Source: Truepera sp. (lineage in GTDB: Bacteria; Deinococcota; Deinococci; Deinococcales; Trueperaceae). From it: a DNA stretch of 64,000 nt. This document shows positions 21,001 to 24,000 of this stretch, one piece after another; position 1 is the first letter of the stretch, and every line of letters begins with the position of its first letter. The DNA is taken from NCBI GenBank assembly GCA_965218435.1, contig CBDCKW010000009.1:2048001-2112000 (forward strand), given 5' to 3'. The position numbers were made by a program.

Positions 21001-24000
21001 GCCATACGAACCCGAGCTTCACAATGGACGTGTACAGCCATATGTTTGCAACGCAGAGAGCGCAGGCCGCTGTCGGCATGGCTGACCTACTCGGAACCGA
21101 CGCGAGACAGGAAAAACTGAATTAAACCCTGTAGGTGTAATTAAGGTGTAAACCGGCACACAAGAGAAGCGCCCCACACTTAGCGGGGCGCTCTTTTTGC
21201 GTCTCTGACGGCTTTTCTTTGGTAGCGATGAAGAGACTTGAACTCTTGACCTCACGATTATGAGTCGTGCGCTCTAACCAGCTGAGCTACATCGCCACAC
21301 AGCAGTAGCAGCTTCAAACCTCTCGAGACACCTTAATCTCTGACGGTTTGACCACAGAAGATGCTATCACTCAGGTTCGGAGCCTTGCAAGTCACTTAAA
21401 GCTCGAGAAACCCAAAAAACGTCTCACTTGTCTGAGCGGGACGCGCACCAACTCCCTGGCGGGCGCAATATCTAAGCACAAACAATCTTTGATGGGCGCG
21501 TTTACGAGCAACCTCGAGTCGGCAAAACGCTCCGCCGCACCGATAGCACTAAAAACTTTTCACCACATTTCTTGAATACTTTATTAGGAGCAAAGCGTGT
21601 ATGTCGCTTTCACTTGCATTACCTAATCATTTAAGGTACCATGACATATAAAAATTCTACCGCTCCCGGAGGTTATAATGGACAGCCAGAGACAGAAGAG
21701 CCTAGAGACGACCCTCACACAGATCGAGAAACAGTTCGGCAAAGGGGCGATCATGCGCCTCGGCGACGACCGCACCATGTTAAGCCAAGGCGTCATCTCG
21801 ACCGGCTCGATGTCGGTTGACTTAGCCTTAGGCGTCGGGGGCGTCCCCCGTGGCCGCATCATCGAAGTCTATGGTCCCGAGTCCGGCGGCAAGACCACCT
21901 TAAGCTTACATATTATCGCCGAAGCGCAAAAAGCCGGGGGCGTGGCCGCGTTTGTCGACGCGGAACACGCCTTAGACCCCGGCTACGCCAAAGCCTTAGG
22001 CGTCGATACCGACGAGCTGTTAGTTTCCCAACCCGACACCGGCGAGCAAGCCTTAGAGATTACCGAACTGCTGGTAAGAAGTGGGGCGGTAGACGTTATC
22101 GTGGTTGACTCCGTAGCGGCGCTTGTCCCCAGGGCGGAGATCGAAGGCGAAATGGGCGACACCCACGTCGGCTTACAAGCCCGCTTGATGAGTCAAGCGT
22201 TGCGGAAGCTGACCGGGGTGTTATCCAAAAGTCACACCACGGCGATCTTTATCAACCAGATTCGGGAAAAGATCGGGGTGATGTACGGCAACCCCGAAAC
22301 GACCCCCGGAGGACGCGCGTTAAAGTTCTATTCGTCCGTGCGGATGGAAGTGCGGCGTAAAGGGGACGTCAAGTCGGGGACTGACAAAGTGGGCAACCAA
22401 ACGCGGATCAAAGTCACCAAGAACAAAGTCGCCCCGCCGTTTAAGGAAGCGGAAGTCGAGATTATGTTTGGCCGGGGGATTGACAAAGTGGGCGACCTGA
22501 TCAACATTGCTTCGGACCTAGACATCATCCAGAAGTCGGGTTCGTTTTACAAGTATGACGGCGTGACCATCGGCCAGGGTAAAGAAAAAGCTTCGGCTTA
22601 CCTCTTAGACCAACCCGGACTTATTGAGCAGATTAGGGAGAGGGTCGTAGGGGTCGTCAGTGGTAAGGGGGCCGAAGAAGATGAACCCGGCGTGCAGCAG
22701 AGCCCTATGGGTGAACTAGGCTAACGTGACCCGCAGCGACCTCAGAGAGGTGCTCAGCTACGCCCTCGGCGGCGAGGCTCCAGAGCGGTTTGTCGAGCGT
22801 TTGGTGTCGCGCCGCGAATGGGACAGTGAGTTTGAGGCGAGGCTCGAGGCCCTCGCCTACGAACTCCGCCCCGACCTAGCCGTGTGGGAAGTTGAGGTAG
22901 ACGAGCAAGGTCACTTTCAAGAACGCCGGGTGCCGCTGCTCGAGTAGCACTTTAGTCTAAGGAGCAAACGATGACTCAGAGCTCCGAACTCGGATTACTA
23001 CTCGAGTCTTTTAGCCGTAACGGACGAGTTAATGACGTTATCCTCAGCGCCCTTACCGAAGCAGACCTAAACTTAGCAGATGGGCAAGGCGGCTGGAATA
23101 TAGGTCAGCATTTAGGCCATCTGGCAGAGTTTCGTTATGGTTGGTTGAACTTTATCTCACCGCAGCACGCAGAGAACATCCCTTCAGTAGCCGAGGGCGA
23201 CCAGCAAAACTTTCGGCTGACGACGCAAAATCCGGCCGATCTCAAACAGGCATTTGCAGCGGGAGACGCGGCTGCGCTCGAGGCAGTTACAAGTGCGCTG
23301 AGGGAAAACCGTTCTTTTGAAGGAGCTTACAAAAGCCACCCCGCGCACTTTTTACAACACATCATCGTGCACGATTCACATCACCGGGGCCAGGTGATAA
23401 GCCTCCTCCGCCGGGGTAGTTGGACACGCGAGCAGCTCGGTACCCTCGATGACGCTACCTGGACGATTTGGAACGAGGCGCAAGATTAACTTTAAGCACA
23501 CATAAAGGAACTGAAATGGCTGTTATTCTCCTTTTCCACCACGCCCAAGGCTTAACCGAAGGTATCAATGCGTTTGCCGAAGAGCTGCGCTCAGCTGGTC
23601 ACCATGTAACCGTCCCCGACCTCTATGACGGCCTCACTTTCCCTACCGTAGAAACCGGCGTAGAACACGCTAAAAACCTCGGCTTTGAGGCACTTCTCGC
23701 CGCCGGGGTAGCTGCTGCTGACGGCCTTCCAAACGGCGTAGTGTACGGCGGGTTTTCTTTGGGCCTAATGCCCGCTCAGAAACTTGCCCAACAACGCCCT
23801 GGCGCACGCAGCGCGCTGCTCTATCACGGCGGCATACCCGTTACCGAATTTGGTGAGGTTTGGCCGGACGGAGTACCGCTCCAAGCGCATGTAATGCGGG
23901 ACGACCCATGGGGCGACGTCGAGGACGTCAAGGAACTTGTAGCCCAGGCTGACGGAGAGTTGTTTCTTTACGAGGGTGACGCTCATTTGTTTACGGACAG

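Follow-up and report, generated by a model that had tools for sequence, protein, structure and literature searches.

Tuning of RecA filaments by RecX, DinI and PsiB sets the balance of repair, mutagenesis and genome stability. RecX is often encoded right after recA and cotranscribed with it at a lower level, and the protein has about 150 amino acids arranged in three helical repeats (tandem three-helix units). DinI is an acidic, SOS-induced protein of 81 amino acids that binds along the groove of RecA filaments and stabilizes the filament at low levels. PsiB is plasmid-borne, is twice the size of the 73-residue protein described here, and like UmuD'2C acts on RecA that is free or that forms the 3' terminal subunit. 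To our knowledge, none of RecX, DinI and PsiB occupies the face of RecA that accepts the next protomer, which is the principle that BRCA2 uses on RAD51. The BRC repeats of BRCA2 cover the surface that receives the oligomerization element of the neighboring subunit and control polymerization in this manner. One study (PMC4374754) reports that RecX caps the 3' end of RecA filaments and blocks their extension, that residues 112-117 of Escherichia coli RecA are exposed at the 3'-proximal filament end and are contacted by UmuC, and that residues 112 and 113 adjoin residues 28-30 of the neighboring subunit.

The window analyzed here, a stretch of 64,000 nucleotides from Truepera sp., carries a recA gene (recA2) followed by a small ORF that may encode a further RecA regulator. 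The features of this locus are given below in window positions.

21614-21619, upstream of recA2: -35-like hexamer TTGCAT
21621-21637, no strand assigned: probable LexA (SOS) operator, 17-bp palindrome ACCTAATCATTTAAGGT, 41 nt 5' of the recA2 start
21637-21642, upstream of recA2: -10-like hexamer TACCAT
21678-22724, + strand: recA2, 348 aa, stop codon TAA at 22722-22724 (PF00154, E = 1e-139; RecA_C, E = 7.9e-18)
22726-22947, + strand: small ORF, 73 aa, GTG start and TAG stop, no recognized family
22935-22958, + strand: terminator-like hairpin, weak and not above chance, at the small ORF's end
22971-23489, + strand: DinB-family gene (PF05163, E = 1.7e-22), 23 nt past the small ORF
23468-24079, + strand: dienelactone-hydrolase-family gene (PF01738, E = 1.6e-12), overlapping the end of the DinB-family gene

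A single base (C, position 22725) separates the recA2 stop codon from the GTG of the small ORF, and the sequence bears out both this gap and the gene boundaries given in the genome-wide survey's note. The start is weak, a GTG that is not preceded by a clear ribosome-binding site, which suggests that less of the small protein than of RecA is made. The gene is present in a single copy in this genome (G000), and its product has a pI of 4.6 and a net charge of -8. Upstream of recA2, a generic sigma-70 scan recognized no promoter, and a terminator scan found one hairpin compared to a mean of 4.0 in shuffled sequences, which is below chance. A dinB match also lies 3' of the small ORF in four of the six loci from the genus (L003, L007, L008 and L009), and the neighborhood with this gene is kept only within the genus. 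Six M78 peptidase genes were found as well.

The small ORF is like recX in being a short gene directly after recA, where RecX genes, which encode a regulator of RecA, are often located. Its product is only 73 residues long and is predicted to fold as three helices and a hairpin, RecX models (PF02631 and relatives) give no match to the window protein at E <= 10 and none in 30 members of the family, and a true RecX gene is located elsewhere in the genome (G000:C9:1896512, 54 bits). The resemblance to DinI is that of a small, acidic, SOS-induced protein that is directed at RecA, as predicted here for the small protein. Its predicted site is the face between protomers rather than the filament groove, however, and the DinI model PF06183 has no match in the members or anywhere in this genome. 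BRC repeats are eukaryotic peptide motifs of ~35 residues carrying FxxA, whereas the small protein is a folded bacterial domain that contacts RecA through helices without an added strand in the predicted complex. Its alignment contains no conserved F-x-x-A; the conserved phenylalanines are F22 (within F-x-x-x-L) and F36. No homology between the small protein and PsiB or UmuD'2C was detected. A literature search also found nothing on the small ORF, nor any paper about the second recA gene or the LexA box of Truepera.

The AlphaFold 2 model of the small protein, rebuilt from its own alignment (pLDDT 87.5), has helices at residues 3-14, 20-28 and 34-47 and a beta hairpin with strands at 54-58 and 64-68. 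Foldseek returns no PDB structure for this model at E <= 0.001, and the best Z score from VIA-align among 48,161 chains is 3.1, with no winged-helix chain above it. The window protein matches no Pfam family at E <= 10, and the 30 members together give just six matches, each confined to one member (E = 0.022-0.13). NCBIfam and PHROGs have no match, a BFVD fold search came back blank, and the ESM Atlas offered no usable match. The missing Pfam family, the three-helix and hairpin fold, and the lack of a Foldseek match had all been described in the survey's note, and each was seen again here. Derivation from a fragment of RecA was considered and rejected, as profile-profile comparison with RecA gives a probability of 0.1%.

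The small ORF is found by single-protein search in 36 of 101 Trueperaceae genomes and is present in 0 of 236 genomes from five sister families. A profile search recovers it in 37 of the 364 genomes of the phylum, all 37 of them Trueperaceae, and the gene is restricted to one clade of this family. A recA gene is directly upstream on the same strand in 33 of the 36 genomes: 24 were seen in loci, six were located by coordinates, and three are contig ends that retain a RecA C-terminal remnant (E = 1.7e-7, 4e-4 and 1e-3). This adjacency spans 17 genera with otherwise varying neighbors, and the earlier description of a lineage-specific gene tied to recA is borne out. In loci with a RecA tail at the end of the upstream ORF, the recA stop and the small-ORF start are 1-31 nt apart, with starts chosen by us. 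In one genus the small ORF is not next to recA; the 220 nt upstream of it contain no palindrome, and two of the three genomes have a TATAAT-like hexamer right before the start. The dN/dS ratio is 0.065-0.218 across 12 pairs that include this unlinked genus, and the small ORF is a real gene under purifying selection.

Thirty intact orthologs share 47-90% identity with the window protein, and their alignment has eight invariant and 14 nearly invariant columns. The survey's note had counted 10 genomes and 21 invariant columns, so that its claim of presence is extended while the invariance is reduced. All 30 members are acidic, with net charges of -2 to -14 and pI values of 4.2-6.05. Among 1.84e9 representative proteins, a profile search gives 11 matches at E <= 0.001, of which ten are real. 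The remaining one, P0010 (550 aa, nine matching stretches), is the sole long match and was discarded as a tandem-repeat artifact, and no fused forms occur among these representatives. The sister clade within the Trueperaceae keeps recA2 and its operator and lacks the small ORF; there, recA2 and the pyruvate:ferredoxin oxidoreductase gene are 335-450 nt apart, and this interval showed no conserved frame.

The palindrome upstream of recA2 has the family consensus ACCTTA-N5-TAAGGT. When sequences upstream of the small-ORF-linked recA are aligned by eye, it is present in 13 of 19 loci, and the other six have the right half only or no palindrome. It overlaps a -10-like TAtAcT in most loci, and a stricter regular-expression scan detects it in 13 of 30. 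Genome G000 has 20 sites with at most one mismatch, compared to three for a reversed control, and the palindrome precedes lexA, uvrA and DUF3072-uvrB in addition to recA2. It adjoins lexA in G003 and G011 too, and the lexA product combines a LexA DNA-binding domain with an S24 peptidase domain. Because recA2, lexA, uvrA and uvrB have the palindrome in common, it is probably the SOS box of the family and a candidate LexA operator. An operator common to lexA and core SOS genes is what defines an SOS regulon, and the recA2-small-ORF operon carries it. The RDRM of Deinococcus is 17 bp long, and LexA is a better candidate repressor here than a route through the RDRM, since the palindrome is linked to lexA.

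The other recA gene (recA1; G000:C9:1610300-1611310) occurs in the context cinA-recA1-rny, and its product is 99% identical to RecA2 over residues 2-338. At the DNA level the two copies are 99.4% identical over 1001 nt (six mismatches), and this similarity covers the core only: their C-terminal tails differ in G000, and the first ~15 residues of the RecA copies also differ in several other genomes. The two genes are homogenized by gene conversion, which keeps their cores identical. These near-identical cores bear out the survey's caveat that the docking implies no specificity for RecA2, and the small protein should act on both RecA isoforms.

We predicted the complex with ESMFold2 from two copies of RecA2 (41-row alignment) and one of the small protein (30-row alignment). 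The three runs give ipSAE values of 0.69, 0.65 and 0.64 (median 0.65) against 0.00 for the best of three controls, share at least 81% of contacts, and have a partner pLDDT of at least 78. Of 157 solved complexes, 116 reach the mark used for such co-folds, as do 2 of 215 mismatched pairs; these counts hold only roughly for a three-chain job with its own alignments. All confident contacts of the small protein go to one RecA copy, where they involve residues 88-89, 91, 112-119, 128-138 and 181. The survey's note had reported docking of the small protein on RecA2 at residues 87-89, 112-118, 128-138 and 181-185, and the two-RecA design leads to the same face. In E. coli, this predicted contact face around 112-119 and 128-138 adjoins residues 28-30 of the neighbor, and D112, L114 and S117, which are named in PMC4374754, are the same residues in RecA2. 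The predictor is unlikely to have reproduced a similar complex already known to it, because the small protein has no relative in the PDB by sequence; a profile search there finds just one chance match, of 21 residues (E = 0.24). The RecA groove is hydrophobic and a natural place for docking, so that a false pass could occur, yet both unrelated small proteins used as controls score 0.00.

On the side of the small protein, the predicted contact residues are 13-23, 25-26, 29, 32-33, 35-36 and 39-40, and they include the conserved A13, L14, P19, F22, L26, W32, D33, F36 and L40. Invariant or nearly invariant positions make up 9 of the 20 interface residues and 13 of the 53 others (one-sided Fisher p = 0.08). 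This enrichment is weak, and the conserved residues could instead form the core of the fold. The conserved hairpin residues A52, W54, G62, L64, E66, R68 and P70 are outside the predicted interface; we had initially expected the hairpin to extend the RecA sheet by a strand, an idea dropped because the modeled contacts are helical. Whether or not a genome has the small ORF, the interface residues of its RecA are invariant; variation at T/V129, 111 and 113 likewise occurs in both groups, and there is no covariation signal.

The small ORF has about an even chance of encoding an SOS-induced, RecA-binding modulator. The survey's note had proposed a modulator of RecA filaments: this is supported in part, in that the gene, its linkage to recA and the predicted docking face are borne out. 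Binding itself is a prediction of the co-fold, competition with a protomer would follow from it, and the effect might be that of a cap, of sequestration or of a stabilizer. The order of three helices and then a hairpin does resemble a winged helix, and a conserved operator lies upstream of recA2, so that a small DNA-binding regulator of the operon was raised in the same note. This now seems highly improbable. The operator is also found before recA2 in five of five genomes from the clade that has no small ORF, which weakens the regulator reading, and it precedes lexA, whose product has the LexA DNA-binding and S24 peptidase domains. In addition, the uniform acidity of the 30 members is at odds with a basic DNA-binding surface, and the structure searches (best Z 3.1; nothing from Foldseek) provide no winged-helix relative, although a protein with this fold may also go unmatched.

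A more plausible alternative, though still an unlikely one, is that the small protein is SOS-induced, rides on the recA2 transcript and acts on something besides RecA, such as cell division, replication, SSB or a mediator, with the RecA docking a false positive. Lineage-specific small SOS effectors such as SulA, YneA and SidA are common, the small ORF is in an SOS-type regulon, it remains under selection even where it is unlinked from recA, and the predicted interface makes no use of its conserved hairpin. However, recA is its neighbor in 33 of 36 genomes, which span 17 genera and vary in the other neighbors, and two co-fold designs find the same interface at scores that the controls do not approach (0.65 versus 0.00). 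It is also conceivable, if rather improbable, that the small protein binds this same RecA face and acts positively, either as a chaperone or hand-off factor against off-DNA polymerization, as BRC does for RAD51, or as a shield of the surface used by translesion-polymerase partners. The co-fold and the presumed SOS transcript shared with RecA2 fit such a factor equally, the same surface is the pol V activation surface of E. coli (PMC4374754), and BRC FxxA motifs compete with the RAD51 linker motif (10.1101/2023.10.05.561053). Against this role, the weak GTG suggests re-initiation after recA2 and a substoichiometric product, and the small protein is a folded domain with no FxxA-type peptide motif.

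If the small protein is a modulator of RecA polymerization, then the stretch from the last part of helix 1 through the G-G-x-x-P loop and helix 2 to the first part of helix 3 would dock on the RecA core. The face that it is predicted to cover is where the adjacent protomer should place its N-terminal helix and strand, and we infer that the small protein competes with this protomer. The face would be accessible only on unpolymerized RecA and at the 3'-proximal end of a filament, and the small protein might consequently cap the growing end or else keep RecA subunits from joining polymers. In either case it would tune filament length after SOS induction. A cap fits better than a stoichiometric inhibitor because of the lower product level that the start codon suggests. 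A fuller but only tentative picture is a two-isoform RecA system, with a housekeeping recA1 in cinA-recA1-rny, a LexA-controlled recA2, and converted cores with differing termini. In it, a clade-specific protein of new fold would plug the protomer-acceptor face in a BRC-like manner, capping the 3' end or buffering free RecA during the SOS burst.

If this picture is true, then a 73-residue protein with a new fold would provide a new mechanism for the control of bacterial recombination. It would also be a compact, genetically encodable reagent that blocks RecA polymerization, and it might act on the RecA of other bacteria, since the RecA residues in its predicted contacts are nearly universal. 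The candidate Trueperaceae LexA box and the concerted evolution of the two recA genes supply a frame in which to test this idea, and a protein of this kind would shed light on how a radiation-resistant lineage copes with a burst of RecA.

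The small open reading frame begins one base behind recA2, and the coordinates and anatomy reported in the genome-wide survey's note are borne out:

21678-22724, plus strand: recA2, 348 aa, PF00154 (E 1e-139), TAA stop
22726-22947, plus strand: small ORF, 73 aa, GTG start one base past the recA2 stop

The small ORF is a real, narrowly distributed gene. It is single copy in the window's genome (G000), and a search with its protein alone hits 36 of 101 Trueperaceae genomes (17 of 36 genera). A profile of 30 orthologues matches 37 of 364 Deinococcota genomes, every one in Trueperaceae (36 of 127 plus the window's genome), and none of the 236 genomes in five other families of the phylum. 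Searching 1.84 billion representative proteins with a profile returned 11 matches (E <= 0.001), ten of which are 41-94 aa members of the same protein family and one a repeat artefact; no fusion to another domain occurs in that set. The 30 orthologues share 47-90% identity with the window's protein; 8 alignment columns are invariant and 14 nearly so, and dN/dS is 0.065-0.218 (12 pairs). Every one of the 30 is acidic, with a pI of 4.2-6.05 and a net charge of -2 to -14.

Adjacency to recA is found in 33 of 36 genomes when all classes of evidence are summed.

Linkage of the small ORF to recA
24 of 30 fetched loci: recA immediately upstream on the same strand
6 genomes: recA adjacent by coordinates
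3 genomes: contig end falling among the final ~30-37 RecA codons ahead of the small ORF (E 1.7e-7, 4e-4 and 1e-3)
3 genomes, all of one genus: small ORF away from recA

At loci with a RecA tail at the end of the upstream ORF, 1-31 nt separate its stop from the chosen small-ORF start, and a GTG one base past the recA stop occurs in four of six loci of the window's genus. The remaining neighbors vary between loci; the window's genus alone has a DinB-family gene nearby, and several other genera have a pyruvate:ferredoxin oxidoreductase gene. One genus (three genomes, 97-98% complete) has the linked copy as the sole recA found. In the unlinked genus, selection on the small ORF persists as judged by dN/dS, an IS110-type transposase lies beside it in the one genome annotated, a TATAAT-like hexamer stands just ahead of its start in two of the three genomes, and a convergent gene follows recA2.

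In loci from both clades of the family (fetched loci L042, L040, L012, L016, L019, L057, L059 and L062), recA2 has a 2-oxoacid dehydrogenase E1 beta-type gene on one side and a pyruvate:ferredoxin oxidoreductase gene on the other, a placement that seems ancestral. Upstream in the window, next to a minus-strand tRNA-Met gene (21220-21296), stand a tyrosine integrase (19932-21125) and a pair made up of an HTH (Cro/C1-type) gene and a ParE-toxin gene (19286-19929). Together they (19286-21296) resemble the border of an integrated element, immediately ahead of the recA2 promoter. A 179-aa Lys/Glu-rich protein (24224-24763, minus strand), convergent with the recA2-side genes, has weak matches to DUF5872 (E 3.3e-5) and Rho_N (E 0.0032).

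The same genome carries a second recA:

G000:C9:1610300-1611310: recA1, 460 kb from recA2, flanked by cinA and the RNase Y gene

The two genes are 99.4% identical in DNA over exactly 1001 nt of core and have no similarity outside it. In all 15 two-copy genomes examined, the copies are 98.1-100% identical over 943-1015 nt, again in the core only (window recA2 with G000 recA1, and fetched loci L001/L002, L008/L044, L011/L043, L020/L046, L022/L049, L023/L050, L040/L047, L041/L045, L042/L048 and L051-L062). RecA proteins diverge by 5-27% between genomes. In a DNA tree, 14 of the 15 genomes have their two copies paired, and the last pair sits in an unresolved fork. This within-genome near-identity and pairing show concerted evolution of the two genes, by gene conversion, across the whole family. 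The isoforms differ only at their termini. Within the first ~15 residues, the polymerisation helix, RecA1 and RecA2 differ in several genomes (for example, K6 in RecA1 and E/Q6 in RecA2), G000 not among them. RecA2-type tails frequently terminate in a hydrophobic-acidic motif (LFDE, FSDLA or VIFEEA; ALEA in the clade without the small ORF), whereas RecA1 tails have GGEE/GEA-like ends. Two clades of the family emerge from the recA tree, and the small ORF occurs in one only; the other has no conserved frame in the 335-450 nt after recA2. In many fragmented MAGs recA is absent or cut, possibly because the recA repeat breaks assemblies.

recA2 and several other genes are preceded by a 17-bp palindrome, ACCTTA-N5-TAAGGT:

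Window 21621-21637: upstream of recA2
G000:C9:159035: 55 nt ahead of uvrA
G000:C9:2690900 and 2690996: two sites upstream of a DUF3072 gene and uvrB
G000:C9:3791581-3791597: before lexA, ~40 nt upstream of its start and just past a TTGACA/TATACT promoter

Alignment by eye finds it upstream of the small-ORF-linked recA in 13 of 19 loci, mostly overlapping a -10-like hexamer; six loci have the right half only or none. A stricter regular-expression scan finds it in 13 of 30 loci. It precedes recA2 in all five loci of the clade without the small ORF, and recA in none of 11 cinA-linked recA1 loci checked. No copy lies within 220 nt upstream of the small ORF in the three unlinked genomes. At one mismatch or fewer, G000 has 20 sites, compared with 3 for the reversed control; further sites precede a DUF6157 gene, an AAA_24 gene, an nSTAND NTPase and several small ORFs of no assigned function. 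The G000 lexA product combines a LexA DNA-binding domain with an S24 peptidase domain. The palindrome adjoins lexA in two more genomes, one per clade, and the uvrB and recA2 sites recur in relatives. With loci L104 and L124 also taken in, these placements suggest that it is probably the LexA (SOS) box of Trueperaceae, for which a literature search found no paper. If so, recA2 would be the copy under SOS control, and this control would extend to the small ORF in every locus where it stands behind recA2. Contig C5 of the same genome holds two perfect copies (G000:C5:23559-23575 and C5:265637-265653; L063 and L064) in near-identical flanks, and therefore a repeated unit carries the operator; the 137-aa ORF beside them has no Pfam family.

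AF2 with the 30-sequence alignment models the small protein (pLDDT 87.5, pTM 0.64) as helices 3-14, 20-28 and 34-47 and a hairpin, 54-58/64-68. Foldseek gives no match at E <= 0.001 against PDB or BFVD, and VIA-align against 48,161 chains gives a best Z of 3.1; a weak or absent match falls short of proof that the fold is new. A co-fold unlike the survey's, with two RecA2 copies (alignment, 41 rows) and the small protein (30 rows) as the scored chain, gives ipSAE 0.69, 0.65 and 0.64, and all three controls (an unrelated small protein in two, a substitute for RecA in the third) give 0.00. Runs agree in at least 81% of contacts, with partner pLDDT at least 78. Among solved complexes 116 of 157 attain this mark, and among mismatched pairs 2 of 215, counts that are only rough for this three-chain job. 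Confident contacts are predicted with one RecA copy only, at residues 88-89, 91, 112-119, 128, 131-132, 134-138 and 181, and involve small-protein residues 13-23, 25-26, 29, 32-33, 35-36 and 39-40. The RecA face named in the survey's note is thus predicted again, through the same residues, in a second design. This interface holds 9 of 22 conserved columns (one-sided Fisher p = 0.08). The hairpin with conserved A52, W54, G62, L64, E66, R68 and P70 (residues 52-70) falls outside it and may serve as another binding surface or belong to the fold core.

RecA2 is numbered as E. coli RecA is, and its P-loop sits at 66-73 as it does there. The residues D112, L114 and S117 named in PMC4374754 are likewise found in RecA2 under the same numbers. 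That paper (Gruber et al. 2015) assigns residues 112-117 to the surface left exposed at the 3'-proximal filament end, places residues 112 and 113 near residues 28-30 of the neighboring subunit, and describes UmuC contacting the surface around them and RecX capping the 3' filament end. Since 112-113 lie beside the neighbor's 28-30, a small protein seated as modeled should exclude the adjoining protomer on that side.

A DNA-binding regulator is very improbable, since the protein's acidic charge, the fold search result and the presence of the operator in genomes without the small ORF all count against it. A target other than RecA is unlikely, and a positive chaperone or hand-off role on the same RecA face rather less likely still. 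By any feature testable here the small protein fits none of RecX, DinI and BRC; G000 has a true RecX gene, and DinI was not found in it. On the modeled contacts and the putative operator, the likeliest reading, to which we give about an even chance, is that the small protein is an SOS-induced RecA-binding modulator occupying the protomer-acceptor face. Within this reading an inhibitory cap would be the leading sub-model because the start signal of the small ORF is weak. If this proposal is true, its closest working likenesses would be 3' capping by RecX and polymerisation-surface mimicry by BRC.
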